36,019 bases of DNA. It comes from Dehalococcoidia bacterium (lineage in GTDB: Bacteria > Chloroflexota > Dehalococcoidia > GIF9 > AB-539-J10). Within the stretch, counting starts at the first letter, position 1; each line of letters starts with the position of its first letter. Made by a program: the position numbers and the translations under genes. Below, piece by piece: positions 1 to 32,685 of this stretch. The stretch covers positions 1-36,019 of the forward strand of contig JAGGZD010000127.1 in NCBI GenBank assembly GCA_021162245.1, written 5' to 3'. The notes under the pieces are model-generated. The model ran no database searches. It was not told the origin of the DNA and was given only the letters and a program-made list of their open reading frames with translations.

Positions 1-155
1 ATTTTCACTCCCTCATTAAGCCTACAAACAGTGTCAAACCTCCTAAACCCACCCTGCCTTTCCTTCATTTTCTCCCGACCCACGGATTAAGGCTAACGCA
101 GATAGATTGCATGAGTAATAGCTTTGTGCTAAAGTTACACTCTAATTGGAGTGTC

Positions 156-380
156 ATGCAGAATAAAGTTACCATCAAGATACCACGGGAGCTTTATCAC
201 AAGCTGGGACAACTAATAGAAGGAACTGGTTTTTCCAGCGTCACGGAATTCGTTGTCTTTGTCATGCGAAGTTTGACCTCCGACAGCGAAATAAGGGTAA
301 ATGATAAGCTAACCGCAGAGGAAGTGCGTGCTGTGAGGGAGAGGTTAAAAATACTCAGCTATCTAAAGGAGGAAAAGTGA
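156..380 (+). CDS. CopG/ribbon-helix-helix family protein
   Basis: Beta-strand VTIKIP followed by helices (RELYHKL, FSSVTEFVVFVMR); ATG at 156 preceded by GGAG (ORF track starts at 111); C-terminus RERLKILSYL. Confidence 0.75.
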   Translation: MQNKVTIKIPRELYHKLGQLIEGTGFSSVTEFVVFVMRSLTSDSEIRVNDKLTAEEVRAVRERLKILSYLKEEK

Positions 381-595
381 ACAAGGGAAAGGAACCCACA
401 AAGGCTGTATTGTTATCTAATGACCTCTATGAGAAGATACAGGAAAGGGTGACTAATACAGAATTTAACTCGGTAGATGAATATGTGATATTCGTCATGG
501 AGGAAGTCCTCAAGGATGAAGAGGACCAGGCCTTGAGTAAAGAGGATGAAGAGGAGATAAAGAAAAAGCTCAAGGCTTTTGGTTATTTGGAATAA
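377..595 (+). CDS. CopG/ribbon-helix-helix family protein (paralog of upstream gene)
   Basis: GTGA overlap with previous gene, AAGGAGG RBS; FNSVDEYVIFVME aligns with FSSVTEFVVFVMR; C-terminus EEEIKKKLKAFGYLE. Confidence 0.8.
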   Translation: MNKGKEPTKAVLLSNDLYEKIQERVTNTEFNSVDEYVIFVMEEVLKDEEDQALSKEDEEEIKKKLKAFGYLE

Positions 596-923
596 ATGGT
601 ATGAGATTTTCTGAATGGTCTATAGAGAATCTAGAGAACACAAAAGAGAAGAGGGAGCAATAGAGACGCTGGTGGTTACATCTTCTTCGGCTATTGTGAC
701 GGAATTTGTTATGCTTCCCATTCTCATGCCACAAGCAGCTGTAAATGAAATAGGGGCTACAACACATCATAGTGACAATCATCCAATTCTAAAGGATGGA
801 TAAGATATAAAATGAACATGCGCAAACTTAGAGATATTATTGCAATACTTGCGATCATATCTGGAGGTTGGAGCATAACAAATACATTTGTTTTTTGATA
901 CGAAATCTTAGGAGGTAATTATT

Positions 924-1724
924 GTGCCTGAGCTAAAGGATCTGGAAGATAGAACCCTGTATATAATAAGAGAGGCTTATGCTAAATTTAAGAAACCAGC
1001 AGTGCTATGGAGCACCGGCAAAGACAGCACCACCATGCTATGGCTCTGCCGTAAAGCTTTCCTGGGTAAAATTCCTTTCCCCGTGATTCATATAGACACA
1101 GGTTATAAATTCAGACAGATGTATGAGTTCAGAGATAGAATTGCTACAGAGTGGGGCTTAGATTTAGTGGTGGCTAAAAACGAAGAGGCGATGAAAGAAG
1201 GGGTGGGTCCTCAGAATGGCAAATTTGAATGCTGCACCAGATTAAAAACACAGGCACTGATGGAATGTTTAGAGAAAAATGGATTCGACGCCTTGATTCT
1301 GGCTATAAGGAGGGATGAGCATGGCATAAGAGCCAAAGAAAGATATTTCTCTCCACGAGATGAATCCTTCAAATGGAATTACAAAGACCAGCCCCTGGAG
1401 ATGTGGGACCAGTACCAGAGCGTAACCGAAGATAGAACTCACACCCGAGTTCACCCAATTCTTCATTGGAGAGAGCTGGATGTATGGGAATACTTCAAGC
1501 AGGAGAACCTCCCGGTAAATCCGATGTATTTTGCTAAAAACGGGAAAAGGTACAGAAGCCTTGGTTGTGAACCCTGCACCAACACTATAGATTCCAACGC
1601 CAGCAATATTGATGAGATAATAGAGGAGTTAAGGACCACCCGAATTGCAGAGAGATCTGGTAGGGCACAGGACAAGGAGAAAGCTTTCACCATGCAAAAA
1701 CTCCGTGCACTGGGGTACATGTAA
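924..1724 (+). CDS. cysD: Sulfate adenylyltransferase subunit 2
   Basis: PP-loop WSTGKDS, IHIDTG, RRDE, RAKERYFS, RVHPILHW, YRSLGCEPCT; GGAGGT RBS before GTG; adjacent to cysN. Confidence 0.92.
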   Translation: MPELKDLEDRTLYIIREAYAKFKKPAVLWSTGKDSTTMLWLCRKAFLGKIPFPVIHIDTGYKFRQMYEFRDRIATEWGLDLVVAKNEEAMKEGVGPQNGKFECCTRLKTQALMECLEKNGFDALILAIRRDEHGIRAKERYFSPRDESFKWNYKDQPLEMWDQYQSVTEDRTHTRVHPILHWRELDVWEYFKQENLPVNPMYFAKNGKRYRSLGCEPCTNTIDSNASNIDEIIEELRTTRIAERSGRAQDKEKAFTMQKLRALGYM

Positions 1725-1732
1725 GGAGAATT

Positions 1733-2947
1733 ATGAAGATAAATGTAGTTATCGTAGGACATGTCGACCATGGTAAATCCACACTCATCGGCAGGCTTCT
1801 CTATGATTCCGAGAGCATCAATGAGGGCCGTGTAGAAGAAATACAGAAACTGGCAGAGGAATACAAGCGAAGATTCGAGTTCGCCTATTTCCTCGATTCC
1901 TTTGACGATGAGCTGAAAGAGGAACGCACCATAGATACCACAGGAGTAATGTTTAAGAGCCGGAAGAACCTCTACTCCATCACCGACGTTCCTGGCCATA
2001 AGGAATTCATCAAGAATATGCTCACAGGTGCGTCCCATTCTGATGTGGCAGTTCTGGTAGTCGCGGCCAACGAGGGTATACAGGAACAAACAGGGAGGCA
2101 CGCCTTTCTGGTCCACATGCTCGGGATAAAGAAACTCTTCGTCGTGATTAACAAAATGGACATCGTCGACTATAGCAAGAAAGTTTTCCAGGACACCAGG
2201 AACAAAATGTCGCATCTACTGGCCTCTTTCGGTTATCACGATGTGCCTTTTATTCCTGGTTCGGCTATGGAAGGAGATAACATCTACAAACCATCACAAC
2301 ACATGAAATGGTATAACGGAACCACCTTGATTGACACCCTTGATAATGTGTCGGTAGAAAGAGTGGTGAAACCGCTTCGATTTGTCGTCCAGGATACCTA
2401 TTCAGTTGATTCCGAAAAGGTCGTTGTGGGCAGGGTCGAATCCGGCACTCTACATGTTGGCGACGAGGTGATTTTTCAGCCTTCGAACGTCATAGCCAAA
2501 GTGCAGAAGATAGTAGTTTACCAGCATGACCTGGCAGAGGCGAACAGGGGAGATAGCATCGGGATCGTTGTAAACAAGGAAGTGGAAAGAGGGGATGTTT
2601 GTGGATTGCCGAAATTGCCACCGATAGCTGTAACGGAGTTCCTGGGAGAGGCTGTGCTTCTTGACAAGAAGCTTCAAGAAGGAGACGAGGTAGAGTTGAG
2701 GTGTGCAACCAGATGGGTCAAGTGCAGAATACAACGCATCAGGGAAAAGATAAACTCGGAGACCGGCGAGGTCATTGAAAATAACCCTGCCGAGATAAGC
2801 GAAAATGAGGCGGCACTCATTGAATTTTCCTGCGAACCGGTGGTGGTAGAAAAGTTCTCTGAGATACCCGAGCTTGGCAGGTTTGTCCTGGTAAGAAACA
2901 AAAACATCGGAGCAGGGATAGTACTGGAAACAACCAGTCAAAAATAA
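1733..2947 (+). CDS. cysN: Sulfate adenylyltransferase subunit 1 (EF-Tu-like GTPase), no fused APS kinase domain
   Basis: GHVDHGKSTLIGRLL, DVPGH, NMLTGAS, INKMD, C-terminal LGRFVL...GAGIV; 404 aa; directly after cysD. Confidence 0.88.
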   Translation: MKINVVIVGHVDHGKSTLIGRLLYDSESINEGRVEEIQKLAEEYKRRFEFAYFLDSFDDELKEERTIDTTGVMFKSRKNLYSITDVPGHKEFIKNMLTGASHSDVAVLVVAANEGIQEQTGRHAFLVHMLGIKKLFVVINKMDIVDYSKKVFQDTRNKMSHLLASFGYHDVPFIPGSAMEGDNIYKPSQHMKWYNGTTLIDTLDNVSVERVVKPLRFVVQDTYSVDSEKVVVGRVESGTLHVGDEVIFQPSNVIAKVQKIVVYQHDLAEANRGDSIGIVVNKEVERGDVCGLPKLPPIAVTEFLGEAVLLDKKLQEGDEVELRCATRWVKCRIQRIREKINSETGEVIENNPAEISENEAALIEFSCEPVVVEKFSEIPELGRFVLVRNKNIGAGIVLETTSQK

Positions 2948-3074
2948 ACACTAAACAAGAAATATAAAATATTGAATAAATACAAATGCCTAAATCTAAA
3001 GACCGTTTCAGTTACTCGTATTTTGAATTTATTAAGAGATCAAGAGTTGGAATTTTCCTTATTGGAGGTTTGCG

Positions 3075-3851
3075 ATGTTTTTTGTACTTGGAATAGATGC
3101 AGCAACATGGACAGTAATCAGGCCAAACCTTGATAGTCTGCCTAATTTTAGAAAACTCATCCAGATTGGAAAGAGCAAGGAGATGGTGCTCACCGAAAAA
3201 CCTATCTCCCCTTCAGTCTGGTGTAGCATGTTCTGCGGGAAAATGCCGCAGGAACATGATCATCACGCCTTCGTTTCTGGAGGCAACCTGGTCAAGCGCG
3301 AGGATATAGCAGTTAAATTCATCTGGGATATACTGCAACAAAAAGGGAAAAAGGTCAGGGTTTTAAATGTCCCTTTTATAGTGCCACCATACTGCTTCAA
3401 TACCTACTTCAAGCCTATCGGCTTTGGGCTTCCTTCCAATGAGAAGGAATGGCAACAAGAACTGGAAAAAGTAACCGAATATACAAAACAATTCATATTG
3501 GAGAAACCAGACCTGCTCATCTCGGTGTATACCCTGTTGGATAGAATCCAGCACTTTCACTGGGGAGAAAGCTGTGTCCTGGAATGGTACCAGAAACTGG
3601 ACGCCAAGCTTGCCGAGTTGCTGTTTGATAACGGTTTTCTGAAAGACCAGCAGAACCAGCTTATCGTAATTTCCGACCATGGTTTCTGTTCATTCGGCGA
3701 GGCAAAAGTACAAACCCTGCCACAAAAAACAGCCGAGGGTATTCTGAAAGGAGACCACCACGAAAACGCCTTCCTGGTAACCGTAAATTTGGATTATGCA
3801 ATAAATAAACCGCAGGATGTATTTAATGCCATCAAACAGGATCTGGGATAA
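3075..3851 (+). CDS. Alkaline phosphatase superfamily protein (short type I phosphodiesterase/NPP-like)
   Basis: VLGIDAA, ISPSVWCSMFCG, DRIQH, ISDHGF, GDHH motifs; GGAGG RBS. Confidence 0.8.
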   Translation: MFFVLGIDAATWTVIRPNLDSLPNFRKLIQIGKSKEMVLTEKPISPSVWCSMFCGKMPQEHDHHAFVSGGNLVKREDIAVKFIWDILQQKGKKVRVLNVPFIVPPYCFNTYFKPIGFGLPSNEKEWQQELEKVTEYTKQFILEKPDLLISVYTLLDRIQHFHWGESCVLEWYQKLDAKLAELLFDNGFLKDQQNQLIVISDHGFCSFGEAKVQTLPQKTAEGILKGDHHENAFLVTVNLDYAINKPQDVFNAIKQDLG

Positions 3852-4123
3852 TGACAACCTTCTCAACTCAAAAGAAAGCCTTATTTTTACAGACATGCTT
3901 GCGCAAAGATTACTGCAATTTATAGATAGTCACGAAAGGTAATGCGGGGCACGCCTATACTTTTTCCAAACCCTAACCTGACATAGAAAACATAGATGAC
4001 CTGGTGCAATAGTATAGTTTGACGTACACGGTGGCACTTCCCCAAAAAATATAAAATACGAACCTGGTTCCTTGAGCCTACTGAAAATATGCGCTATCCT
4101 AGTACGGATTCGGTTTAAGAACA

Positions 4124-5437
4124 TTGATGAAATCTAACCTTCCTTTCTTTGGTATAATCCGCGAAGTCATCGATATAATGACCTCCAGGCAGAAACTGGT
4201 GCAGTTTGCCACCACGCCTCTCTACAGAAATGCCTCTTACCTGATGCTCAATACGGCGATTATGGCTCTTATGGGTTTCTTCTTCTGGATGATAGTTGCC
4301 CGGTTTTACTCCGAAGCTGAGGTAGGCTATAGCTCAGCCATAATATCAGCCCTCAATCTCCTCGCGATCATAAGCCTGGCTGGTTTAAATACATCCCTGA
4401 TCCGCTTCCTGCCCCGAAGTGATAAACCCCAGGAACTGATAAATACTTCTTATACACTGAGTAGTCTTATCAGCCTGGTGATAGCCAGTATTTTTATCGC
4501 TGGCCTGAGCCTATGGTCTCCATCTCTGGACTTCATCAAACAGAATCCTATATTTACTCTGGTTTTTATCATCTTAACCTTATTGTGGACACTATCAAGA
4601 ATGCTGGGAGCTACATTCATTGCCAGGAGGCATGCGGGCTTTGTATTATCCAAGAACACCATACAATCGACACTTAAAATACCCTTCGCCATCCTCCTTG
4701 TCTCGCTTTTTCACACATTTGGTGTAGTTGCTTCATGGGGTATCGCCAATATCATAGCCATAACTATTTCCATTTTTCTGTTTCTGCCCAGCGTCCAGAA
4801 TAATTATAAGCCAGTGCCTGCTTTTAATCTGAATTTAATTAAAGATATGTGGCGATATTCAGCGGGTAACTACTCCAGCAACCTTTTATCAGGCTCACTG
4901 AGGTTCATACTGCCACTTATGGTTGTTAACCTGCTGGGAGCCAGGCAAAACGCCTATTTCTATGTTGCATGGCTGATCGCCAACTTTCTTTTCGCTATCC
5001 CCACCGCAATCTCCCAATCCCTGTTCGCAGAGGGCTCACACTTTGAAGATAAATTACGGAAAAATGCAATGAAATCCCTTAAATTAACCTTCCTGCTGTT
5101 AGTTCCGGCAGTCGTGGTAATCATTCTGGCAGGCAAATGGTTGCTCCTTGCCTTCGGGCAAGGCTATTCCCTGAATGCCATAAGCCTGCTCTGGATTCTC
5201 AGTCTATCCAGTTTCCCACTGACAGTCAACCGTATCTATAGCAGTATACTGCGGGTTAAAGGCAGATTGAAGAAGCTTATAGCAATCTGGGCATTTATTG
5301 CTGTTTCCGTATTTCTATCCAGTTACTTGCTTATGCCAGCGTTCGGTATTATGGGAATTGGCTATGCCTGGTTCGGAGCCCATGCCGTAGCGGCCATATA
5401 CATTCTCACCTCAAGGAAACTTCTGCCACCCAAATAG
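4124..5437 (+). CDS. Oligosaccharide flippase (Wzx/MOP family); start may be ATG 4178
   Basis: Many hydrophobic segments; LYRNASYLM, GFFFWMIVAR, GLNTSLIRFLP, FGIMGIGYAW are typical of polysaccharide exporters. Confidence 0.85.
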   Translation: MMKSNLPFFGIIREVIDIMTSRQKLVQFATTPLYRNASYLMLNTAIMALMGFFFWMIVARFYSEAEVGYSSAIISALNLLAIISLAGLNTSLIRFLPRSDKPQELINTSYTLSSLISLVIASIFIAGLSLWSPSLDFIKQNPIFTLVFIILTLLWTLSRMLGATFIARRHAGFVLSKNTIQSTLKIPFAILLVSLFHTFGVVASWGIANIIAITISIFLFLPSVQNNYKPVPAFNLNLIKDMWRYSAGNYSSNLLSGSLRFILPLMVVNLLGARQNAYFYVAWLIANFLFAIPTAISQSLFAEGSHFEDKLRKNAMKSLKLTFLLLVPAVVVIILAGKWLLLAFGQGYSLNAISLLWILSLSSFPLTVNRIYSSILRVKGRLKKLIAIWAFIAVSVFLSSYLLMPAFGIMGIGYAWFGAHAVAAIYILTSRKLLPPK

Positions 5438-5568
5438 CTATGGCCTAATTGAGAAATATAAGTAGTATAAACCTTCAGAATCATCGTAGCAATCAGCGCA
5501 CCGGCCATGCTAGCTTGATACCCACCTAAGCAAAAACAGGTGATATTTAGTGTCCTCATTTTTATATT

Positions 5569-6978
5569 TTATATTCTGCCAGACTTTTTTAAACTCTTCA
5601 TTTTTGCCTTTACTGCCGCTTTTTCGTAATCAGTTTTTCCTTCCGCCTTAAGATGTTTAAACTGGGCTATCTTTTTTCTTGCTTCCAGCTCAAATTTATC
5701 CGCTTCGTCATTATTTACGCCATATAAATTATTTGTTTCCCCGGGGTCACCCCTTAAATCATATACTTCTTCGCCTAATAGACATCCATCATTAAGGCTC
5801 TCGGTGCAAATATATTTCCAACCAGGTATACGATAGGAAATCCTTCTTTGTCTCAACCTATCATTGACAACTGTACTAATAACTCCTTCTTCACCTATTG
5901 CTTGACCAGAGCATATGGAAGGCCACAAGCTTTTCCCCAAAAATGTCCCTGGTTTTTTTATTCCAACCATCTCCAGTATGGTTGGTGATAAATCAATAAG
6001 ACCCGCCTGCCCTTTTACCATTATCCCCATATTAATACCAGGTCCCGTTACAATCAATGGTACTCTTAGGAGGTTATCATAAACGGTTTTATGCCCAAAA
6101 ACGCCATGCTCACCAAACTCATCTCCATGGTCAGCTGTAATAATCACTATTGTATTTTCCAAACGCTTCCCCATCCTCTCAAGAAGAACGCCAATCTGCT
6201 CATCGGCATAGTTTATATCCGCATCGTACAGGTCAATAATTGTTTTTATATCATCCGCCGACAGCTTACCAGGACTTTTTTGCCTCTTTTCACCTAGAGA
6301 TGTCATCAGTTTTTGTTTGACCGGTTTATCTGAAAACCGGCGCAGATATTTTTTAGTTGGCAAGTAGGGTTCATGCACATCCATATAATGAAGCCATAGG
6401 AAAAAATTACCCGAATTAGAGCCAAGCCACTGCAATGATTTATCGGTTATTTCTTCAGCGCTGACAATCGGCCGGGGCAATGCACGAGAAAGCAATGGCT
6501 GCATTATTAAGCTTGCAATATGTACTATCCTAGCCATTGACCTGCCAAGCAAATGTGCCTTGCGTCTTATCCACATCCTTACCCGCCAGCGATTGAGCCT
6601 CTGAAAACTATCATCGAATGCATCAAATCCTTTCTGATATCCATAGAAATGTGAAAGGAGTGGGTTGCAATGAAAAGCGGCTGTGTGGTAACCAGCTTCT
6701 TTAAATATCTCAGCTATAGTGATATTGTTCTCCAGGATAGTTTTACCTCCAAATTTTTCAATTGGAGGCAGAGCTGACGCCATAATGGCAGGGAATGACG
6801 AGGCAGTAAAACCTCCATTAGATATCGCTTCCATGAATTGCACCCCTCTGCTGGCAAGTGCATCAATATTGGGACTGGTATTTCTATTATAACCGTAGCA
6901 CCCCAGGTGGTCACGGCGAAGGGCATCTATGGTGATAAGAAGTATATTTGGAGCATCTGCCTTTGTGGTATATTTCAT
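5569..6978 (-). CDS. Sulfatase-like hydrolase/transferase (AP superfamily), copy 2
   Basis: PNILLITIDALRRDH, WLHYMDVHEPY, ITADHGDEFGEHG, EVYDLRGDPGE; start ATG 6978 overlaps the upstream stop as ATGA. Confidence 0.88.
   Translation of the reverse strand: MKYTTKADAPNILLITIDALRRDHLGCYGYNRNTSPNIDALASRGVQFMEAISNGGFTASSFPAIMASALPPIEKFGGKTILENNITIAEIFKEAGYHTAAFHCNPLLSHFYGYQKGFDAFDDSFQRLNRWRVRMWIRRKAHLLGRSMARIVHIASLIMQPLLSRALPRPIVSAEEITDKSLQWLGSNSGNFFLWLHYMDVHEPYLPTKKYLRRFSDKPVKQKLMTSLGEKRQKSPGKLSADDIKTIIDLYDADINYADEQIGVLLERMGKRLENTIVIITADHGDEFGEHGVFGHKTVYDNLLRVPLIVTGPGINMGIMVKGQAGLIDLSPTILEMVGIKKPGTFLGKSLWPSICSGQAIGEEGVISTVVNDRLRQRRISYRIPGWKYICTESLNDGCLLGEEVYDLRGDPGETNNLYGVNNDEADKFELEARKKIAQFKHLKAEGKTDYEKAAVKAKMKSLKKSGRI
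5758..5837. repeat. 80-bp exact direct repeat, copy A (within a ~270-bp near-identical block, 5569..5837)
   Basis: atcatatacttcttcgcc...ggtatacgatagg is identical to 8131..8210 by eye. Confidence 0.9.
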
Positions 6979-7945
6979 ATTAATCCTTTTTCCTTGAACT
7001 TCATAATCCAATTCTGAATTTTATCTTTCTGTCTCGTATCTGACTTTTTTACCACTACTTTACCTGACTTGGAATCGGTTTTAAATATTTCGGTAAGTAC
7101 CCTGCCATCTATATCATCAGGGACTGGCAAGCCAAACATGTGTAGAACGGCTGGAATAATATCATATATACTCAAATTTACCAGCTTCTCACCGCTCTCC
7201 TTTATACGTGGTCCACTGACCATGAAAATACCCTGCCTGGCATGCCAGAGTACGATGGTTCAGTCCACCCAGAATCCTGATTTCCATATGTCACGGGAGT
7301 GCATCTATCAATAAGGAAAGCAATATCATGTCCCTAGTTAGCATAAACCTCATGATATATCTCATCTCCCGTGAACACTGTAATATCAAGGCTTTTACCT
7401 GTTTCATGGTTAGTTATATTCCTTAGCCTATGCACAATATCGTTCACAAGTTTTTCATATTCTTCTCCATGTTCAACTACGCCTTTCGGCTCCCTGCCTT
7501 TCAAATTTATACGTATCATATTTGTGCCTCCCTCCGGGGTAGGCTCTAGCTCTAGCCCTGGCCCAGTCAATGTTGCGATAAATTTCAGCCACTCTGTAGC
7601 CTGATTTCTCACGGCTGGGTAGCTTTATCAAGAGTCGTTCGGGGAGCATCTTTGCTATGAAACAGGTTACTCTGGCACTATGAACCGATAGCAGAAAATC
7701 CCTTATACGCCATAACCAAGGAGGCTCTCCATTATTACCTGCTGGCTGAGAGAAGACCAGTAACCCCTCTTTTTCCAACCATCTACTAACCACAAAACTT
7801 CTACGGCAGGTAGCGAAACCGTGATCAGAAACAATCAGCATATTCGTTTCTCTTGGAAGTTCCTTGATTAACTTATCTATGGCAGCATCGATTTCCTTAT
7901 AGCAACCTTTAGTTAAGCTATGATATTCCCGTCTTTATACCTCAT
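6975..7945 (-). pseudogene. Degraded paralog of the NPP-like gene at 9348..10973
   Basis: Three ORF fragments are colinear with the C-terminal ~320 aa of the intact paralog (VSDHGF, RINLKGREP, HAR.G.F, LHMFGLPVPDD.DGRVL); 5' part missing, frameshifts near 7927, 7537 and 7245, TAG at 7334-7336. Confidence 0.9.
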
Positions 7946-9351
7946 ATCCTGTCAGACTTTTTTAAACTCCTCATTTTTGCCTTTACTGTCGCTTTTTCGT
8001 AATCAGTTTTTCCTTCCGCCTTAAGATGTTTAAATTGAGCTATCTTTTTTCTTGCTTCCAGTTCAAATCTATTCGCTCCCTCATTCCCTACACCGTGCAA
8101 ATTATTTGTTTCCCCTGGGTCACTCCTTAGATCATATACTTCTTCGCCTAATAGACATCCATCATTAAGGCTCTCGGTGCAAATATATTTCCAACCAGGT
8201 ATACGATAGGCTATATTTCTCTGTCGCAATCCCAATGAGCATATATATGTACTTATAGTCCCTACTTCTCCATTATCTTGATCCTCTATTGTTGGCAACA
8301 AACTTTCTCCCTTAAAACTTCGAGGATTTTCAATTCCCAAAAGGTCAGTCACTGTCGGCGCCAAATCAATGAGGCTAACCTGATTTTCAACCACCACATC
8401 GCTTTCTACACCAGGTCCTGCTATTATCAATGGGACATGGAGTAATTCATCATATACAGTGTTATGTCCAAACCTTCCATGTTCCCCAAATTCATCACCA
8501 TGGTCAGCGGTGACAATTACAATAGTGTTATCCAGGCGATTTCCCAATTTACTCAGCAGTGAGCCTATAACTTCATCAGTATATTTTATTTCAGCATCAT
8601 ATAGGTCAACTAGAATTTTCTTTTCTGTAATAGATATTTCCTCGGGTTTGTGTAACATCTTACGCCATAGAATATTCATTTGACGGCGGCTGACCGATTT
8701 GTGGTAGAACTGGCTAAGGTATTTAGCTGTTGGCATATAAGGGTGATGTACATCCATATAATGAAGCCACAAAAAACAACTACCACCATGGCTCTTATGC
8801 CAAGACAGAGCTTTATCAGTTATTTCTTCAGCGCTAATAATGGGGCGACTGAGCACGCGTGAAAAGACAGGTTTCAATAGGATGCTTGCCCTATCCGCTA
8901 CCTTGGCCACAAAACCACCCGCAGATTTTGCCTTGTTTCTTACCCATAACCGTAATCCTTTGGGAGTGGATTGCCACAAGCTATCATCAAATAGGTCAAA
9001 CCCACGATTATAATTAAGGAAGTGAGATAAATTAGGATTAGAATGAAAAGCAGCAGTATGATAGCTATACTTTTTAAATATCTGAGCCAACGTGACACTC
9101 CGACGGAGTATCGCTTTCCCCCCATTCAACTCTATCGGCGGCAACGCCGATGCTATAATAGAAGGAAAAGCTTGCGGCGTTTGCCCACCATTCGATATCG
9201 CCTGCATAAATTTTACCCCTCTGGTAGCAAGGGCATCTATATTAGGACTGGTATTCCTATGATAACCATAGCAGCCCAGGTGGTCATATCGCAGGCTGTC
9301 TATGGTTATCAGGATTACATTTGGTGCGTCTAATTTTACATTGTTCGTCAT
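7942..9351 (-). CDS. Sulfatase-like hydrolase/transferase (AP superfamily), copy 1
   Basis: PNVILITIDSLRYDH, WLHYMDVHHPY, VTADHGDEFGEHG, EVYDLRSDPGE; ATGA coupling to upstream gene. Confidence 0.9.
   Translation of the reverse strand: MTNNVKLDAPNVILITIDSLRYDHLGCYGYHRNTSPNIDALATRGVKFMQAISNGGQTPQAFPSIIASALPPIELNGGKAILRRSVTLAQIFKKYSYHTAAFHSNPNLSHFLNYNRGFDLFDDSLWQSTPKGLRLWVRNKAKSAGGFVAKVADRASILLKPVFSRVLSRPIISAEEITDKALSWHKSHGGSCFLWLHYMDVHHPYMPTAKYLSQFYHKSVSRRQMNILWRKMLHKPEEISITEKKILVDLYDAEIKYTDEVIGSLLSKLGNRLDNTIVIVTADHGDEFGEHGRFGHNTVYDELLHVPLIIAGPGVESDVVVENQVSLIDLAPTVTDLLGIENPRSFKGESLLPTIEDQDNGEVGTISTYICSLGLRQRNIAYRIPGWKYICTESLNDGCLLGEEVYDLRSDPGETNNLHGVGNEGANRFELEARKKIAQFKHLKAEGKTDYEKATVKAKMRSLKKSDRI
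8131..8210. repeat. 80-bp exact direct repeat, copy B (within a ~270-bp near-identical block, 7942..8210)
   Basis: Identical to 5758..5837; both lie in the 3' ends of the sulfatase-like paralogs. Confidence 0.9.
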
Positions 9352-10973
9352 ATCTTCCGTGACTCCTTCAGTTTACTTATTTTACCTTTCGTCTTATATT
9401 TCTCTCCTGTTGGTTTAATAATAACTTTCCTTTTAGCCGGTTCAGAATCCGGTCTTAATATTTCGGTAAGCACCCTGCCGTCCATATCATCAGGAACTGG
9501 CAACCCAAACATGTGCAAAAGCGTAGGCGTGATGTCGTATATTTTCAGGTTCTCTAGTTTCTCGCTAGTGCTTTTAACATCGGGGCCGTAAGCCATAAAT
9601 GTGCCGTTCCTGGCATGCCATCCTGACCTGGAAGGTGTACGCCATTCAGAAGATTCGTCCCTTCCCCCTCCTACGGGCATATATTTATCAAAGTAGAAAA
9701 CAATATCCGGGCCCTCATCAGCATATTCGCCGCTGTATATTTCTCTACCCTCAAAAACACTAATATTTATCTTCTCCCCTGATTCAGGGTCATTAATTTC
9801 CCGAAGTTTACAGATTATTTTATCCAGCAATTTCTCATAATCTTTACCTGGTTCAACAATTCCTGCCGGCTCTCGTCCTTTAAGATTGATACGTATCGCT
9901 CCAGTACCGCCCTGGCAATAAGCCAGTGTTTTTGACCAGTCAATACTTCGATAAAACTGCGCTATAAGATAACCTTCCTTTTTACGTGTCGACAGTTTCA
10001 TCATTAACCATTCAGGAAGTATACTGGCTATAAACTTTACCATCCATGGATTTAGCGTAGATAAAAGAGAGCCTCTGATCCGCCACAACAGCGAACTACC
10101 TGAGCTATGTTTTGCCTGTGGTAGTAAGGTGAGAAGCCCCTGCTTCTCCAGCCACCTGTTTACCACAAAATCACGATGACAAGTTTGAAATCCATGATCA
10201 GACACAACGATAATATTAGTTTTTTCAGGCAACTTATTTATCAGCTCACCGATAGCACAATCAACTTTCATATAAAGATGTTTTATTACATCTTTATATT
10301 TCTCTCCTTTATGTCCCGGATGACTATCATCCATGTGCTTCCAGAAATAATGTTGAGCGCTGTCAACTGCAAAAAACACACTTACAAAAAGCTCCCAGGA
10401 GAAGGGATCCATCAGATATTTGGCCGCTTTACACCTGTTATCTACCTCTCGCTCCAGGATTTTACTATACTCTGCTTCCTTACCGGGAATAGTCATATCT
10501 GCCGGAGTAAACGGCTCGTACCCCGGGACAGCTTTCTCCAGTTCATGTTTTAACCACGAAGGATATGTATATTCTGACCTACCACTTGCCGGAGCTCCTA
10601 TACCACAAACGACAAAACCATCCACCTTATGAGGGGGAAATGTCATAGCCAGATTAAGAATACCTACAGGGATTCCTGCATCATTCAGCATCTTCCACAG
10701 AGACCACTGTTGGTAGTTCTGAGAAGAGCTAATTTTTATATGGTAATCATCATTAACATCTACGCTAATGAAACCATACATGCCAATTTTACCCGGGTTC
10801 TTGCCGGTAAACATGCACGGCCAGGCTGGGCATGTTACCGGAGGGATAGTGGATTCCAATTCACCATACACCCCTCCTTCCATAATTCGCTTCAAATTCG
10901 GCAGCTCATCTCTCCACTGCTCAATCAGTTTTGGTGAAGCCCCATCTATCCCCAAAATAGCAACCTTATTCAT
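9348..10973 (-). CDS. Alkaline phosphatase superfamily protein (type I phosphodiesterase/nucleotide pyrophosphatase-like)
   Basis: ILGIDGA, STIPPVTCPAW..MFTGKNPGK, DSAQHYFW, VSDHGF, RINLKGREP, SGWHARNG, DITPTLL. Confidence 0.9.
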   Translation of the reverse strand: MNKVAILGIDGASPKLIEQWRDELPNLKRIMEGGVYGELESTIPPVTCPAWPCMFTGKNPGKIGMYGFISVDVNDDYHIKISSSQNYQQWSLWKMLNDAGIPVGILNLAMTFPPHKVDGFVVCGIGAPASGRSEYTYPSWLKHELEKAVPGYEPFTPADMTIPGKEAEYSKILEREVDNRCKAAKYLMDPFSWELFVSVFFAVDSAQHYFWKHMDDSHPGHKGEKYKDVIKHLYMKVDCAIGELINKLPEKTNIIVVSDHGFQTCHRDFVVNRWLEKQGLLTLLPQAKHSSGSSLLWRIRGSLLSTLNPWMVKFIASILPEWLMMKLSTRKKEGYLIAQFYRSIDWSKTLAYCQGGTGAIRINLKGREPAGIVEPGKDYEKLLDKIICKLREINDPESGEKINISVFEGREIYSGEYADEGPDIVFYFDKYMPVGGGRDESSEWRTPSRSGWHARNGTFMAYGPDVKSTSEKLENLKIYDITPTLLHMFGLPVPDDMDGRVLTEILRPDSEPAKRKVIIKPTGEKYKTKGKISKLKESRKI

Positions 10974-11214
10974 AGCTTAACTTCTGCCCATGTTGAGCCC
11001 TTGTCAACGAGTTCAACTGACCTTTCTGCATAATATAACAGCTGATTTACGTACTGGTGAAGAAGTATCCCCTGGCAGTGATGACTTGCCGGCCACACAT
11101 CTACACATCAATTCTATCCAGAAGAGATATTCATTATAGATATTCGTAGCTATTATCTACAGTTTACATACCCTCTTGTATTATTATATCCTACGGGGTA
11201 CCAACTAACAATAA

Positions 11215-11632
11215 AGTGACAGGATAACTGCCGATGAACTACGGGTAATACTTAAAGAGCAACTTTGTTTAGCAACGATAACTTCTTCATTGAACTGGCC
11301 TAAATACAAATCTACTATGGACATCTCCGGTACAAAAGGCAATATGCATATAGATATCAGAAATTTGGCTATTACATTGTCTGGCACCTATGGTAATTCC
11401 CTTAGTTCACGAGCTATGGAAAACCAGCCAACAGAGTTACTCTCTGCTGGCTGGTACTGCCAGCTCAACAATAAAGATGCTGGTCGGTAAATGCCACACA
11501 GGGCATTACAACTTGATTGAGCGATTTTTCAAAGCGATACTGGATGATACCAGGCTCCAGGTGACTGCTGATGAAGGGAGAGAAGTCATGAGAGTTTATG
11601 AAAAAATAGTATCTGGGTTAAACAGTTGCTAA
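11215..11632 (+). pseudogene. C-terminal remnant of a Gfo/Idh/MocA-family oxidoreductase
   Basis: DELRVIL...MDISGTKGNMHIDI then, after a frameshift near 11424, GHYNLIERFFKAILDD...VTADEGREVMRV; no N-terminal Rossmann domain, stop codons upstream of 11215. Confidence 0.65.
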
Positions 11633-11675
11633 TACTCATTTATCCAAGCTGAATATTTATTGCTGTATAGTTCAT

Positions 11676-12725
11676 TCATTCCATATATAACCTGCCAATC
11701 CGCTGTACCACTTCATCCCAGTCCCATAGTTTTACAGCAGATACTTTTTTGCCGACCACATTATTTATTAGCCGTGCTAGCTCCTCATTGTTTATTGGAT
11801 AGTCAATTCCAAAACAATTTTTATTATCAATCCATTCTGATAATGCTGATGTGTTGGCCACAACGCATGGCGTCTTAGCTGCCAGAGCCTCGGCAATAAC
11901 AATAGAAAAGGCTTCGCGTTGAGATAGCAGAACGAATACACCAGCTTTAGCATACATTTTTAAAAGTTCTTGCCCGGACAGGCCTTGATAAAACTTTATT
12001 CGATTATTTAATCCAAGTTTGCTTACCAATCTCACAAGTTTGGCTTTATATGGCCCCTTGCCAACTATTTCCAGACAGAAATCCTTATCTAATAAAGGCA
12101 GCGTTTGGATTATATATTGTGCTCCTTTGTATTCTTCCAGCCTGCCAACATATAAGATAGTTTTTAACTCTCTTGACACTTCTTGCAATTTACTAAACTC
12201 TGATAGATCAACTCCATTAGGGATAATGCTTACTCTATTTTCATCTATAACGAAGTCATTGAGCAAAAGATGCTTCTCATATTTCGAAACAGCGATAATG
12301 CTTTTCGCATTGTCAAATATTTTCCTGCCGAAGGATTTATACAGCCTGATGAGAAAGTTTCGGACTGGGGTATGACCGTGTCCATGATAATGAGGAGTTA
12401 CAACGAATTTCTTTGCATTAGCATTCCTGGCAAAATATAAAGGCAAAGCGTGATAGTTATGGCCATGAACTATATCAAATTCAGATTTCTTGAGTTCCCT
12501 TGCCATCTCAAATGATATATGGTAAGCATCATCTGGAGCGAAAGTCTTGAACCTCCTGACCAGGACCCCATTTATTTCCTCTTGCTTTGGCAACTTTCCT
12601 GTGGGGTCACCGGTGAAAACAGTGACTTGATGTTCTTTAGATAAGCGCTCGCTTATATTCCTGACATGTTCCTCAATGCCACCAATACTAGGGTAATATT
12701 TCGGACATACTTGAAGAATTCTCAT
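11676..12725 (-). CDS. Glycosyltransferase family 4 (GT-B)
   Basis: MRILQVCPKYYPSIGGIEEHV, DIVHGH, IIPNGVD, YVGRLEEYKG, EAFSIVIAEALA. Confidence 0.93.
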   Translation of the reverse strand: MRILQVCPKYYPSIGGIEEHVRNISERLSKEHQVTVFTGDPTGKLPKQEEINGVLVRRFKTFAPDDAYHISFEMARELKKSEFDIVHGHNYHALPLYFARNANAKKFVVTPHYHGHGHTPVRNFLIRLYKSFGRKIFDNAKSIIAVSKYEKHLLLNDFVIDENRVSIIPNGVDLSEFSKLQEVSRELKTILYVGRLEEYKGAQYIIQTLPLLDKDFCLEIVGKGPYKAKLVRLVSKLGLNNRIKFYQGLSGQELLKMYAKAGVFVLLSQREAFSIVIAEALAAKTPCVVANTSALSEWIDNKNCFGIDYPINNEELARLINNVVGKKVSAVKLWDWDEVVQRIGRLYME

Positions 12726-12731
12726 TTGATT

Positions 12732-12854
12732 TTACAAACCTGAAGTAATAATAGGTATGCTACGAGCCATAGCGATTTTGATCATGCCACTGCCAGCAGC
12801 CTTGAGATAAGACAGTACCAATACATCAATGTCAGAGAGATATTTTGGGATCAT
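12732..12854 (-). pseudogene. 40-aa internal remnant of a GT4 glycosyltransferase
   Basis: Manual translation MIPKYLSDIDVLVLSYLKAAGSGMIKIAMARSIPIITSGL* resembles the GT-B nucleotide-binding segment D.LVLPY...SG....AMA.G.P.ITS. Confidence 0.6.
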
Positions 12855-12855
12855 C

Positions 12856-13851
12856 TCAAGTGTTCCTTCTACCAGGACGAAGGTTACGCAAGTTATAACT
12901 CAGATACCCGACAGCAACACAGGCCAGCACTAATTTGGTGACCCATAGCTGGCGCAGGGCAATTTTAGGCTGGCTGAAAAGAAGTTTTATAGAGCTGGGT
13001 ATCAGCTTAGAAAAGATGCGATGGAGAAGCTCATGCTCGGTGGATAATACCTTCTTGCCTCTGCCACCAGAACGATATAGCTTATTAAATATAGCTTTAG
13101 CATAGCCTTCCCAGTAAGCCCTTTTCCTGATAAAGCTGCCGCTAAGCCTGTAGCTATAAACCTTATGTTTTACCCTGATGTGGGGATGATAAACTATACG
13201 CTTACCTGTTTGGCGTTTGACTCTGATGGAGAATTCCGTTTCTTCTCCTCCAGGCTGCTGCCAGTCGCTTTTGCCGCTCTTTTCATCTTCCAGGCTGACT
13301 TTGAAGAATCCACATTGGGCAAAGGCTTCCCTTTTGAATGAAATATTAACCCCATAGCCATTCCTGACCTCGGTGGGTTCAGTCCAGTCCCAGTAGGTAC
13401 AGGAAAATATCCAGTAAAATTCCCTGGGGAACCAGTTCATTGCTTCATCTTCCCACAACGGGAGAATGGGTCCGGTAAGGCCAATAATCGAGCTATCTTC
13501 GGCATAGGCTCTGACTGTTTCCTCCGCCCAACCAGGTAAAAGAAGGGCATCATCATCAACAAAAGCTATGATTTCGCCGCTTGCTTCATTGATCCCGAGA
13601 TTCCGGGATGGATAGGAACCCCTTTTACCCTGGTTGTATAACACCAGAACATTGGGATAATCCTTTTCCTGGGCATAGTTTCTGATGCTTTCCACAAATT
13701 CCGGCGACCTTTCAGCTACAATTATGGTCTCAGTGTTCTTATAATTCTGAGCCTGGATACTATCGAGCAACTCAGTGACATCTTTAAACCTATCCATAGT
13801 GTAGAAAGGCGTGATTATGGATATTTTAGCCAGTTTAGTAGCTGCTGCCAT
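12856..13851 (-). CDS. Glycosyltransferase family 2, archaeal AglG-like
   Basis: SRNLGI, IAFVDDDA, WFPREFYW, EVRNGYGVNISFKRE, GGEETE, VKHKVYSYRL, RAYWEGYAK. Confidence 0.85.
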   Translation of the reverse strand: MAAATKLAKISIITPFYTMDRFKDVTELLDSIQAQNYKNTETIIVAERSPEFVESIRNYAQEKDYPNVLVLYNQGKRGSYPSRNLGINEASGEIIAFVDDDALLLPGWAEETVRAYAEDSSIIGLTGPILPLWEDEAMNWFPREFYWIFSCTYWDWTEPTEVRNGYGVNISFKREAFAQCGFFKVSLEDEKSGKSDWQQPGGEETEFSIRVKRQTGKRIVYHPHIRVKHKVYSYRLSGSFIRKRAYWEGYAKAIFNKLYRSGGRGKKVLSTEHELLHRIFSKLIPSSIKLLFSQPKIALRQLWVTKLVLACVAVGYLSYNLRNLRPGRRNT

Positions 13852-13997
13852 TTTATCTACTTGAAATGCCCCTTACCGCTCGTCTGGCTATTTCGCCACG
13901 CCATAGAGTAATGTGAAAGTATAACAAATTGCTGATTCGAACATCCGATCAACAAGACAGTTCCAGGCAAAGCCAGTATCTCAGGTGGCAAATGTCT

Positions 13998-14678
13998 TCA
14001 CCTTCCTCCAAACTTCTCCCTGAGAATCATCTTCAGTATTTGCCAGCCATGTTTTATCCTGCCAAGTTTTTGTTTCCCCAGTCGGGGGCTGTATTCTATA
14101 GGGAACTCGGCTATCTCCAATTTCATTCTGGCGGCTTTTATAGCTATCTCTGTTTCGACAGTGAAACCTTTTGAATTAAGCTGCATCTGCTCGAACTGGG
14201 CTTTCTTAAGCCCGTAGAGGCCGGTCAGAGGGTCTTTGACCTTGCAGCCGTGGAGATGCCTCAACAGGCACCTGAAAATAAAGTTGCCGATGCGGTTGAG
14301 GCGCGGGATATTCTCTCTCCCTTTTACCCTGGAAGCAACCACCATATCGAAGTGTTCCAGGAATTTTGCTATGTCTGGAATAGCTTCTACAGGATAGGTA
14401 TTATCGGCGTCTGTGAAAATAACGTTCTCGCCCTGGGCTTCCTTTACACCTGCCTTCATTGCCCCACCCTTGCCATGATTTTGCCCTCGCTTTATTAATT
14501 TGCAGGGGAAAGAAGAGGCTCTTTCAGCTGTTTTATCCGTGGAGCCATCATCAACAACAATCACTTCATAACTATCATCTATGATTTTATAAACCTTCTC
14601 CAATACTACAGGTAAACCTTCTTGCTCTTTATATGCTGGAATGATGATGGTATTCTTCATTTTTGTAGATAGCACCAC
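13998..14678 (-). CDS. Glycosyltransferase family 2, polyprenol-phosphate glycosyltransferase (DPM1/AglJ-like); start may be ATG 14660
   Basis: IIPAYKE, VVDDGSTDKT, NHGKGGA, FTDADNTY, RLNRIGN, GFTVETEI, PIEYSPRLG. Confidence 0.88.
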   Translation of the reverse strand: MVLSTKMKNTIIIPAYKEQEGLPVVLEKVYKIIDDSYEVIVVDDGSTDKTAERASSFPCKLIKRGQNHGKGGAMKAGVKEAQGENVIFTDADNTYPVEAIPDIAKFLEHFDMVVASRVKGRENIPRLNRIGNFIFRCLLRHLHGCKVKDPLTGLYGLKKAQFEQMQLNSKGFTVETEIAIKAARMKLEIAEFPIEYSPRLGKQKLGRIKHGWQILKMILREKFGGR

Positions 14679-14933
14679 ATTTCCCTTTGCCTCATTTTCC
14701 TAATCGCCTGCTTTCGTAGCGTCCATATACGATTCCCCAATTTACTCTAGCGATATAATATACTGTGCAGCAAACCCAATGCAACAGGCTCGGCAGGCGA
14801 AGCCCTCCCTGAGAGCGATCCTCTGAACTGCTAACCATGTCAACTCTTCACGACGCTTATAAATCCTTCCTGCCTGTTATTGAAATGAAAGGCATAGACA
14901 CATTGGTGTATAATGGGTTTTAGAGGTGCACAT

Positions 14934-15539
14934 ATGATATCAAACTCACTAGTTCATCCCGTAGGAAAAACCAGAGGGGATAGGGTTGCTATTTTTATAG
15001 ACGGGAGCAATTTATATCACTCTCTACAAACCAATTTTAAGCGCCATAACCTTAACTATGCAGAGTTTACCGCCAAGATTGTCGGGTCAAGACAACTATT
15101 TCGAACATATTATTACAACATCCTGCAGGACTCAGCTCAATGGCCAGGTACATCTCATGAACAACAGGATTTCCTCGATATCCTCCGTAAGACACCATAT
15201 CTGGAGATTCGGCTGGGGACCACCAAAATGGCACAAGGTGGACCTGTTGAAAGAGGCATAGACATAATGTTAGCCACAGATATGCTACGCTTTGCATGGA
15301 ATGACCTCTACGACATAGCAGTCCTGGTGAGCGGAGATTCTGACTTTACTTATGCCCTCCAGGCTGTGAAAGATTTTGGCAAGTACGTGGAGATAGCCTA
15401 CTTCGAAAGAAACACTTCTAAAGACCTCCTGGATATAGCAGATTATCAACACCTGCTCAACCGAAGTTTTTTCAACGGCCTATGGTCAGGCAGACGTCGC
15501 ACAAAACGCAAACGAACAAATACAACAAAGGCAGCATAA
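14934..15539 (+). CDS. NYN domain protein (LabA/DUF88 family)
   Basis: IFIDGSNLY, ERGIDIMLATDM, LVSGDSDF; ATG 14934 follows AGAGGTG RBS. Confidence 0.9.
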   Translation: MISNSLVHPVGKTRGDRVAIFIDGSNLYHSLQTNFKRHNLNYAEFTAKIVGSRQLFRTYYYNILQDSAQWPGTSHEQQDFLDILRKTPYLEIRLGTTKMAQGGPVERGIDIMLATDMLRFAWNDLYDIAVLVSGDSDFTYALQAVKDFGKYVEIAYFERNTSKDLLDIADYQHLLNRSFFNGLWSGRRRTKRKRTNTTKAA

Positions 15540-15639
15540 ATTACTCCCACGATTACATGTCTGGCATACACCTGGTAATTTGAAATCAATTTGATGAGTA
15601 GGCCAGGCGTAGTCAAGAGTAATTAATTAAAACATAGAA

Positions 15640-16308: not shown

Positions 16309-16312
16309 ACTC

Positions 16313-32376: not shown

Positions 32377-32685
32377 TTATAACCTGATATCTATTTCCAC
32401 TCCAGAAGCCAAATTAATTTGGGTCAAAGCGTCTATAGTTTTAGAAGTTGGTTGTAAAATATCAATAAGCCGTTTATGAGTGCGAATTTCAAATTGCTCT
32501 CTCGAATCCTTATCAATATTCGGAGAGCGGATGACACAAAATTTTTCTATATGCGTAGGCAAAGGTACCGGCCCAACAATCGTAGCTCCAGTACGTTCCA
32601 CCGCTTCTGCTATTTGCATCGTCGCTTGATCAACTAATCTGTGATCGAAACCTTTAATTTTAACACGGACTTTCTGAGCGCTCAT
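32377..32685 (-). CDS. rpsJ: 30S ribosomal protein S10
   Basis: [28 protein letters not shown]. Confidence 0.98.

Follow-up and report, generated by a model that had tools for sequence, protein, structure and literature searches.

How could a bacterium sulfate a glycan if it activates sulfate but shows none of the usual means of using it? This question is raised by a 36,019-nucleotide (nt) stretch of DNA, here called the window, from a Dehalococcoidia bacterium (contig JAGGZD010000127.1 of assembly GCA_021162245.1) that we class as a Dehalococcoidales bacterium with a small genome. Clustered in its left 14.7 kb are genes for CysD and a CysN-like GTPase, the presumed subunits of an ATP sulfurylase, together with five genes of the alkaline phosphatase (AP) superfamily, a flippase gene and three glycosyltransferase genes. 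In textbook sulfation, sulfate is converted to adenosine 5′-phosphosulfate (APS), APS is converted to 3′-phosphoadenosine 5′-phosphosulfate (PAPS), and PAPS serves a P-loop sulfotransferase. To our knowledge, the only accepted exception to the PAPS route is the aryl-sulfate sulfotransferase (ASST) family. From the gene content, the catalytic-site residues, the absence of a PAPS route and linkage across genomes, we infer sulfotransferase activity and the identity of the acceptor, and we assign a probability of roughly 0.6 to the reading that the AP proteins of the window act as AP-fold sulfotransferases and receive activated sulfate from a dedicated CysDN module. That APS is the direct donor is somewhat less probable, and less probable again is a sulfo-Thr intermediate, formed when a metal-activated Thr alkoxide attacks the sulfur. 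Which of the five AP proteins would transfer sulfate we can only infer.

The sulfate-activation and glycan locus

An earlier note, made from the DNA sequence alone, had listed cysD, a cysN without a CysC domain, five AP genes (one of them broken), a flippase and three glycosyltransferases as one cluster. All are present, and the list was accurate as far as it went; it left out two small ribbon-helix-helix (RHH) genes at 111-595, which belong to the activation module. The features are, by position and strand:

111..380, plus strand: RHH1, a small RHH protein of 89 amino acids (aa) from its ATG, ending ...RLKILSYLKEEK (weak RHH_1 match, E 0.0037, below the cut-off)
377..595, plus strand: RHH2, a small RHH-like protein of 72 aa, ending ...KKLKAFGYLE (homologues at short-CysD loci)
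924..1724, plus strand: short-form CysD, the PP-loop subunit of ATP sulfurylase, 266 aa, ending ...KLRALGYM (NF003587)
1733..2947, plus strand: CysN-like GTPase of an EF-1alpha-like clade, 404 aa, no APS-kinase domain (Pfam, NCBIfam)
3075..3851, plus strand: short AP-superfamily protein resembling nucleotide pyrophosphatases/phosphodiesterases (NPP-like), 258 aa (Phosphodiest, E 1.3e-15)
4124..5437, plus strand: polysaccharide or lipid-linked-oligosaccharide flippase, 437 aa (Polysacc_synt_3, Polysacc_synt; eleven hydrophobic segments)
5569..7011, minus strand: sulfatase-fold AP enzyme, 480 aa, Thr type (NGGFTASSFPAI), candidate sulfotransferase (Sulfatase, E 8.5e-44)
about 6990..7931, minus strand: broken NPP-like (Phosphodiest) copy (tblastn with the 541-aa paralogue)
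7942..9351, minus strand: sulfatase-fold AP enzyme, 469 aa, Thr type (NGGQT58PQAFPSI), candidate sulfotransferase (Sulfatase, E 1.9e-47)
9348..10973, minus strand: NPP-like AP enzyme, 541 aa (Phosphodiest, PF01663, E 4.5e-41)
11676..12725, minus strand: GT4 glycosyltransferase (best NCBIfam model archaeal Agl16, far below the cut-off)
12856..13851, minus strand: GT2 glycosyltransferase (best NCBIfam model haloarchaeal AglG, 216 bits against a cut-off of 440)
13998..14678, minus strand: GT2 glycosyltransferase, polyprenyl-phosphate hexose synthase-like (best models AglJ and dolichyl-phosphate hexose transferase, below the cut-off)

This gene set is best explained as a locus for the assembly and sulfation of an archaeal-type lipid-linked glycan in a member of the Dehalococcoidales. 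Sulfate would be converted to APS by the short CysD and the EF-1alpha-like CysN GTPase, whose genes are preceded by those of the two small RHH proteins. Because the genome lacks an APS kinase, APS would be the end of the activation path. In the place of cysC stand genes for predicted soluble cytoplasmic AP enzymes, two of the sulfatase fold and Thr type, one full-length NPP-like and Thr type, and one short and Ser type. These would most likely move the sulfuryl group from APS to sugar hydroxyls, as enzymes of the kind of Agl30 and Agl31, two archaeal proteins discussed below. The predicted acceptor is a polyprenyl-phosphate-linked glycan assembled by the AglJ-, AglG- and Agl16-like glycosyltransferases, which the flippase would carry across the membrane. 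One of the two STT3/AglB-type oligosaccharyltransferases that are encoded elsewhere in the genome could then attach it to protein.

Sulfate activation without a PAPS route

The window CysD scored 337 bits against NF003587 (cut-off 195) and matched PDB 1ZUN_A with an E of 1.6e-66, leaving about 31 residues of 1ZUN_A unmatched between two aligned stretches. Its partner has the three domains of EF-Tu-type GTPases (Pfam GTP_EFTU, D2 and C-terminal domain) with the G motifs present. Its scores of 383 bits against the EF-1alpha model and 293 bits against the CysN model TIGR02034 (cut-off 336) both fell below the cut-offs, and a PDB search gave 314 bits for archaeal EF-1alpha (3WY9) versus 189 bits for CysN (1ZUN_B). 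Judging by sequence, the clade of this GTPase, which is wide in DPANN archaea, may lie near the origin of CysN from EF-1alpha.

The window contains no cysC, cysH, sulfite reductase or P-loop sulfotransferase, just as the earlier note stated. The note had allowed that the missing genes might lie beyond the window, which is the entire contig C50 of a 1.49-Mb assembly in 132 contigs (92.87% complete, 1.35% contamination). Because the window is a complete contig, the glycan locus may indeed extend leftwards. The note's suggested genome check, for CysC and the families Sulfotransfer_1 and Sulfotransfer_3, found neither: across the whole assembly there was no APS kinase, no match to either of these two sulfotransferase families, and no NIR_SIR sulfite reductase. 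Nor was there any match to the FGE-sulfatase family, a radical-SAM maturase not having been searched for. Since its own genome has no sulfite reductase, APS would be without an assimilatory sink.

A second sulfur locus, reached through PAPS_reduct-family matches, is split over contigs C83 and C60. The C83 part (L007, 275-6407) contains two genes of the ASST family, a CysD-like PP-loop gene (288 aa) that precedes Sat (NF003166, 503 bits), DUF6955 and a TauE permease. C60 (L008, 1-4610) carries one gene of the ASST family, an NPP-like one (493 aa), a sulfatase-like one (403 aa) and a partial CysD-like gene, whose first 105 codons reach the contig end with 97% nucleotide identity to the C83 copy; the assembly was probably broken here by a repeat. 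The second PP-loop gene is CysD-like, ends like CysD and is without the usual CysH C-terminal motif. Assimilatory use of APS was therefore rejected, there being no NIR_SIR and this gene not being CysH-like. Thus, a 1.5-Mb genome encodes two systems for sulfate activation, with neither an assimilatory nor a PAPS route in view.

The AP genes follow the same distribution. A local phmmer search over all open reading frames (ORFs) of the genome placed its three sulfatase-like genes and its NPP-like genes (two intact, one short, one broken) only in the two sulfur loci. Because the sole other AP-family members of the genome adjoin the CysD-like gene on C60, the clustering of AP genes beside sulfate activation exceeds chance. 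The 493-aa NPP-like paralogue on C60 (L008:1657-3138, minus strand) has Ala at the nucleophile position, SPYG for SDHG and GN for GH; from its sequence it is probably catalytically dead, with the C-terminal LGY tail described below retained.

Thr-type enzymes with a sulfatase fold

The sulfatase-like proteins of the window belong to PF00884, and their best PDB matches are S1 sulfatases (E down to 3e-23). The PDB alignments end at the catalytic motif, where T58 of the 469-aa protein aligns with the mutated catalytic residue of 6pt6 and 6ptk. The 480-aa protein is 63% identical to it and forms row 2 of a 28-sequence alignment (A1) in which D18, T58, H197, H202, D283 and H284 are invariant and the catalytic motif reads NGGxT(P/A)x(A/S)FP(S/A)I. 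The Thr/Ser nucleophile envisaged in the earlier note was borne out more widely, by 128 sulfatase-like proteins of at least 330 aa collected from both locus sets described below: the position is Thr in 120, Ser in 6, a gap in 2 and Cys in none. D18 is kept in 125/128, and H202, D283 and H284 in all 128. The formylglycine motif C/S-x-P-x-R was not found in these proteins, and its Arg is absent. Because Thr or Ser occupies the position in 126 of the 128 and Cys in none, the window "sulfatases" are not formylglycine sulfatases; as judged from their sequences, they are Thr-type AP enzymes. True sulfatases were thus rejected as candidates, both for the missing Cys/formylglycine motif and for the lack of an FGE-sulfatase family match in the assembly. 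The family is large, with 5826 proteins at E <= 1e-10 among 7999 scored candidates.

The 541-aa NPP-like protein retains GIDG, PPVT46CPAW, SDHG and GWH, so that its catalytic set is intact. It has a strong Pfam match, a best PDB match with an E of 5.5e-5, no fitting NCBIfam model, and weak matches to ENPP3 and ENPP4 in which TCPAW aligns onto TFPNH. In the 258-aa protein the nucleophile position is Ser, SDHG is kept, and the C-terminal half of the fold is missing; its homologues directly follow cysN in most Chloroflexota loci. Among NCBIfam models, EptA, CptA, MCR and LtaS gave weak local matches to the AP proteins. None of the window AP proteins has a transmembrane segment or a signal-like N-terminus, and no hydrophobic 19-residue window reaches 1.6; they are therefore predicted to be soluble and cytoplasmic.

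The paired NPP-like and sulfatase-like genes are a tandem duplication with a repeat unit of 2373 nt, and the end of the 541-aa gene overlaps the start of the 469-aa gene by 4 nt. By tblastn, the broken NPP-like copy corresponds to residues 224-356, 354-455 and 452-537 of its paralogue in frames -1, -2 and -1. It therefore has two frame changes and keeps residues 224-537; the first 223, among them the nucleophile, are gone. Over 296 nt at their 3′ ends (5561-5856 and 7934-8229), the two sulfatase-like genes are 90% identical. Since the whole duplicated units are only about 69% identical, this sequence comparison suggests recent gene conversion within the duplication.

Linkage of AP genes to sulfate activation across genomes

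Three sets of loci were compared. The short-CysD set comprises the 80 best loci with relatives of the window CysD. The canonical control set comprises the 80 best loci for the 303-aa CysD of a Thermoplasmatales genome, where the operon order is CysD, CysN, DHH, CysC and sulfate symporter. The sulfatase-anchored set comprises the best 79 loci, 574 stretches in the species collection encoding relatives. AP-family genes occur in 52/80 short-CysD loci and in 0/80 canonical loci; cysC occurs in 1/80 and 44/80, respectively. The earlier note had proposed to look for such co-occurrence, and the result supports it. Because the AP and cysC counts are reversed between the two sets, AP genes occupy the place of cysC.

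This association is also close in space. In 44/76 mappable short-CysD loci, an AP gene is found no further from cysD than three genes upstream or four genes downstream, and the CysN-like gene follows the short CysD in 72/80 loci. In L086, from an unclassified bacterium, cysN and a sulfatase-like gene overlap by 4 nt, and Sat directly abuts an NPP-like gene in one Promethearchaeota locus and one other archaeal locus (L023 and L066). Sulfatase-like and NPP-like genes substitute for one another beside cysN across lineages, and a further Phosphodiest type of 233 aa occurs in eight short-CysD loci. The 80 short-CysD loci are Chloroflexota at 78-94% CysD identity and, at 55-71%, Micrarchaeota, Woesearchaeota, Pacearchaeota, Altiarchaeota, Methanosarcinales, Omnitrophota, Streptomyces and others. 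Recurrent neighbours are flippases (15 loci), carbamoyltransferases (8), methyltransferases (7), epimerases (6) and STT3 (4). ABC-transporter ATPases are found in 5 loci, accompanied in 2-3 of them by a permease and a PBP_like_2 binding protein. Neither APS kinase nor CysH nor any P-loop sulfotransferase or other sulfotransferase candidate is among the recurrent neighbours in the short-CysD loci.

Whole-genome co-occurrence was assessed for 50 of the 80 short-CysD loci, chosen mainly by length; the genomes are metagenome-assembled (MAGs), and absence from any single one is weak evidence. APS kinase is present in nine of the 50 genomes and was not found in 41, including all 15 Chloroflexota. 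Sulfotransfer_3 is present in 5/50 and Sulfotransfer_1 in 3/50, leaving 45/50 without either. Every genome with such a match is among the nine that have cysC, so 41/50 have neither kinase nor sulfotransferase. This widens the absence of sulfotransferases on which the earlier note had built. APS is pointed to as the donor because the AP genes hold the place of cysC, mostly in genomes without APS kinase.

The sulfatase-anchored loci give the complementary view. They are led by Dehalococcoidales, followed by Halobacteria, Promethearchaeota, Thermoplasmata, Bathyarchaeia and a few other bacteria. Within 10 kb of the sulfatase-like gene, glycosyltransferases are found in most of the 79 loci and an NPP-like gene in 20/79. 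STT3/AglB lies within the same distance in 16/79 (15 haloarchaea and one Thermoplasmatota), as against 5/80 CysD-anchored loci. Among the 79, cysD with cysN occurs in three and Sat in two. An ASST query had no match in either the 79 sulfatase-anchored or the 80 CysD-anchored loci. The genomes behind the first 50 sulfatase-anchored loci include seven Dehalococcoid genomes, all without APS kinase, of which five have a short CysD and one of them also Sat. In the species collection, the nearest relatives of the window genes are in Dehalococcoidales MAGs. The closest, L090, encodes a CysD 94% identical to that of the window with STT3 directly upstream of RHH2-cysD, and another locus of the same assembly (L009) encodes a sulfatase-like protein 62% identical to the window's.

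RHH2 homologues occur in 51/80 short-CysD loci and 0/80 canonical loci, and many relatives have two small RHH-type genes in tandem upstream of cysD. F30, L65, G69 and Y70 are invariant in a 45-sequence alignment of RHH2 (A2), which is likely a local regulator or adaptor of the module. A 272-aa TauE permease is encoded just upstream of cysD, between it and the RHH genes, in 16 related loci. A tblastn search of the corresponding 330-nt gap in the window (596-923) revealed no TauE remnant.

A shared C-terminal tail

CysD and RHH2 share a C-terminal tail, L-x-x-L-G-Y, also written +L+xLGY(x0-3) (CysD, 1683-1724; RHH2, 554-595). The search pattern was [LIMV]xx[LIMF]GY with no more than three further residues before the C-terminal end, and it was applied to ORFs of 70 aa or longer from the loci and to ORFs of 50 aa or longer from the genome to which the window belongs. 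The tail was found as follows:

CysD: 75/81
RHH2 homologues: 62/64
sulfatase-like proteins in sulfatase-anchored loci: 62/109
NPP-like proteins in sulfatase-anchored loci: 8/18
sulfatase-like proteins in CysD-anchored loci: 5/19
NPP-like proteins in CysD-anchored loci: 2/34
unlabelled ORFs in CysD-anchored loci: 4/2845
unlabelled ORFs in sulfatase-anchored loci: 29/3744
control ORFs (canonical-CysD loci): 0/3547
ORFs of the window's own genome: 5/6036

The five bearers from the window's own genome all belong to the two sulfur loci; they are RHH2, CysD, the C60 NPP-like protein, one ASST and the CysD-like protein (the last three among L007:1498-2670, L007:2725-3591 and L008:1657-3138). A Pfam scan of 24 of the 29 unlabelled bearers recovered nine mostly weak AP-superfamily matches (Sulfatase, Phosphodiest, PglZ) and one weak RHH match. 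Two, an epimerase and a Sulfotransfer_3 protein, look like chance, and twelve had no family match (nine of 286-319 aa, three of 70-79 aa). According to the reverse cloning primers in Table 1 of PMC11980604, Agl30 ends in ...HLEDLGYL and Agl31 in ...LEELGYT, and both primer-derived ends fit the pattern.

The tail is similar to the L-S-A-L-F-G end of the ribosomal stalk protein, a ligand of archaeal EF-1alpha. The structure 3WY9 contains EF-1alpha with the C-terminal helix of the stalk protein aP1 (L100, L103, S104, A105, L106, F107, G108), and the EF-1alpha contact Phe129 aligns with a Phe of the window GTPase in the conserved RHAFL stretch of a further alignment (A3). By analogy, the tails might bind the CysN-like GTPase in the way that the stalk tail binds EF-1alpha, which is an attractive idea. 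A search of 19 haloarchaeal genomes with the window query found ordinary EF-1alpha and no separate CysN-like GTPase, and the haloarchaeal tail is therefore a misfit with simple docking. Rather unlikely, in our view, is the extension of this idea to a widespread, undescribed PAPS-independent pathway, in which the CysN-like protein, derived from EF-1alpha, would be a hub where CysD, RHH proteins and AP-fold sulfotransferases dock by a tail helix, much as the stalk tail fits the cleft of archaeal EF-1alpha, and APS would be handed on directly, never released or phosphorylated.

Alternative explanations

Could the AP proteins instead be phosphoryl or phosphodiester transferases, or hydrolases, acting on the glycan, while CysDN supplies an unrecognised sulfotransferase or its APS is used in another way? 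The Thr/Asp/Asp-His/His site is one that we take to be that of the phosphoryl-transferring EptA and LtaS, and typical of phosphoryl-transfer members. The weak NCBIfam matches to EptA, CptA, MCR and LtaS point the same way, as do the haloarchaeal genomes that hold the family without known sulfate-activation genes. Yet genetics has identified as sulfotransferases two members of the superfamily that carry the LGY tail (passages of PMC11980604). The membrane domain of EptA and LtaS is missing from the window AP proteins, and no other sulfotransferase candidate recurs near the module. Moreover, phosphoryl transfer would leave unexplained why AP genes stand in the place of cysC in short-CysD loci only, why one overlaps cysN in L086 and why Sat adjoins NPP-like genes in archaea, and we regard it as unlikely. 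NPP enzymes cleave nucleotide anhydrides, and the AP proteins might accordingly be activation helpers that split APS, pyrophosphate or AMP by hydrolysis and so pull or regulate the unfavourable sulfurylase reaction, the acceptor step being done elsewhere. The position of the short NPP-like gene directly after cysN in most Chloroflexota loci would suit such a role, and the loss of catalytic residues in the C60 paralogue suggests a structural or regulatory one. Hydrolysis of APS right after its GTP-costly synthesis would, however, be futile. The module's neighbours are glycan genes, and the interchange of sulfatase and NPP folds beside cysN fits varied acceptor specificity better than a single housekeeping step; we consider the helper role improbable. 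It is more improbable still that the CysD/CysN-like pair activates another oxyanion, such as selenate or molybdate, or serves sulfur assimilation, with its proximity to glycan genes meaningless. The GTPase does score below the CysN cut-off and higher against EF-1alpha, and the neighbouring TauE and PBP_like_2/ABC transporters are not sulfate-specific. CysD is nevertheless far above its family cut-off, the genome has neither a sulfite reductase nor a CysH-type reductase bearing the usual C-terminal motif, and the AP linkage, which the canonical loci lack, turns up repeatedly in different phyla.

The proposal of AP-fold sulfotransferases must also be weighed against several observations of our own. 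The clade of the window AP proteins is known from sequence and gene context, and sequence alone cannot separate sulfuryl from phosphoryl transfer. The comparison with Agl30 and Agl31 covers their descriptions and the last 7-8 residues taken from primers. The three full-length AP proteins of the window end in ...SLKKSDRI, ...SLKKSGRI and ...KLKESRKI, a diverged basic tail that does not match the LGY motif. One missing gene is possible in a genome about 93% complete, and the ASST-family genes beside Sat in that genome are PAPS-independent sulfotransferases of another kind. Regarding the locus counts, many short-CysD loci are mutually related and the counts are not independent events; the canonical control loci are mostly Bacteroidota and Verrucomicrobiota, so that the taxonomy of the two sets differs.

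The archaeal genomes also speak against APS as the donor everywhere. Among genomes with the family, those of Asgard, Thermoplasmata and Bathyarchaeia mostly have Sat and CysC, and PAPS could therefore be the donor in many of them. In Candidatus Mnemosynella biddleae, an APS kinase match (G006:C10:219946-220392) lies just past the end of the sulfatase-like locus L014, probably on the same contig; the family may thus be near cysC in some archaea, with PAPS as a possible donor there. The 19 haloarchaeal genomes that hold the family (among G008-G050, with loci among L016-L058 and AglB-linked family members) have no Sat and no CysD above the cut-off in 19/19, and a clear APS kinase in only one. The donor in haloarchaea would therefore not come from known activation enzymes. 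Published work shows that haloarchaea make sulfated glycans; their sulfate activation is unexplained by known genes and must draw on something not yet recognised.

The rest of the window

In its right half the window carries a ribosomal-protein region of bacterial kind, with EF-G, bacterial-type L3, SecY, RpoA, L17, TruA, L13 and S9. At 32377-34806, S10 directly follows EF-G with no EF-Tu gene in between; an EF-Tu-sized ORF of 402 aa on contig C93 was matched by the CysN-like protein in a phmmer search. Between the glycan cluster and the ribosomal region, at 14913-16837, lie three genes for which no link to the glycan cluster was seen. They encode an NYN-domain protein, a short DnaJ-like protein of 222 aa (J domain and part of a C-terminal domain) and a member of the isochorismatase family.

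Comparison with known systems

The closest precedent is archaeal. Passages of Zaretsky et al. (2025, PMC11980604) describe Agl30 (VNG1056C, membrane-associated) and Agl31 (VNG1057C, soluble) as members of the AP-like core superfamily whose best matches are sulfatases. By deletion and heterologous expression, each was found to be required for sulfating one sugar of the dolichol phosphate (DolP)-linked N-glycan of Halobacterium salinarum and to confer sulfation in Haloferax volcanii (PMC11980604). Passages of PMC12624080 locate the sulfation step at the cytoplasmic side of the membrane, ahead of the flippase and AglB, and Agl7 was assigned a role in sulfating DolP-hexose in the parts consulted of Kaminski et al. 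(2013, PMC3892788). The words PAPS, APS, donor, nucleophile and formylglycine do not occur in the text of PMC11980604, and the passages of PMC12624080 do not address the donor, the words PAPS, APS and donor being absent from them. Sulfation by an AP fold, as conceived in the earlier note, is hence supported and at the same time less unprecedented than it had seemed, because Agl30 and Agl31 have been shown to sulfate an archaeal N-glycan (passages of PMC11980604). Like them, the window proteins are AP-type in sequence and sulfatase-like, in a glycosylation cluster with glycosyltransferases and a flippase; AglB is in the Halobacterium cluster and STT3 elsewhere in the present genome. The tail is a further likeness, carried by the window CysD and RHH proteins and by 62/109 sulfatase-like relatives. 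In contrast, the host here is a bacterium with a dedicated CysD/CysN-like module that is absent from the 19 haloarchaeal genomes, NPP-fold paralogues take part, and the tail of the window AP proteins has diverged.

The locus and its relatives supply a genomic link for the donor that the 2025 Halobacterium work left open, and small soluble bacterial proteins make the question of donor and mechanism directly testable. If our reading is correct, many "sulfatase" and "phosphodiesterase" annotations would denote biosynthetic transferases, sulfated surface glycans would be predicted in uncultured Dehalococcoidales and DPANN lineages, and the enzymes could serve as PAPS-free sulfation catalysts.

Canonical glycan sulfation relies on CysDN(C) and PAPS-dependent sulfotransferases, as with NodPQ and NodH in rhizobia. 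There, as here, a CysD PP-loop subunit and a GTPase subunit make activated sulfate for a glycan; the present system differs in having a short CysD, a GTPase nearer EF-1alpha, no APS kinase domain or gene and no Sulfotransfer_1/3. EptA/MCR-1 and LtaS are Thr-nucleophile transferases of the AP superfamily that act on envelope glycoconjugates via a covalent enzyme intermediate. The window proteins share with them the sulfatase-type fold, the Thr nucleophile and the Asp-His metal site; those enzymes have an N-terminal membrane domain, lipid donors and phospho-groups to transfer, whereas the window proteins are predicted to be soluble and are linked to APS synthesis. The formylglycine sulfatases (type I, S1) resemble the window family in Pfam PF00884 and in best PDB sequence matches, and differ by the C/S-x-P-x-R motif, FGE gene and signal peptide that it lacks. 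From NPP/ENPP enzymes the 541-aa protein has the T-x-P Thr nucleophile and the Asp and His metal ligands. ASST enzymes, encoded also in the genome's own Sat locus, offer a parallel in PAPS-independent sulfuryl transfer via a covalent enzyme intermediate, but have an unrelated beta-propeller fold and use aryl sulfate donors. We found no description in the literature searched of APS-dependent AP-fold sulfotransferases or of such a module. What is new here is the bacterial host, a kinase-less activation module tied to AP genes across phyla, and a pointer to APS as the donor.

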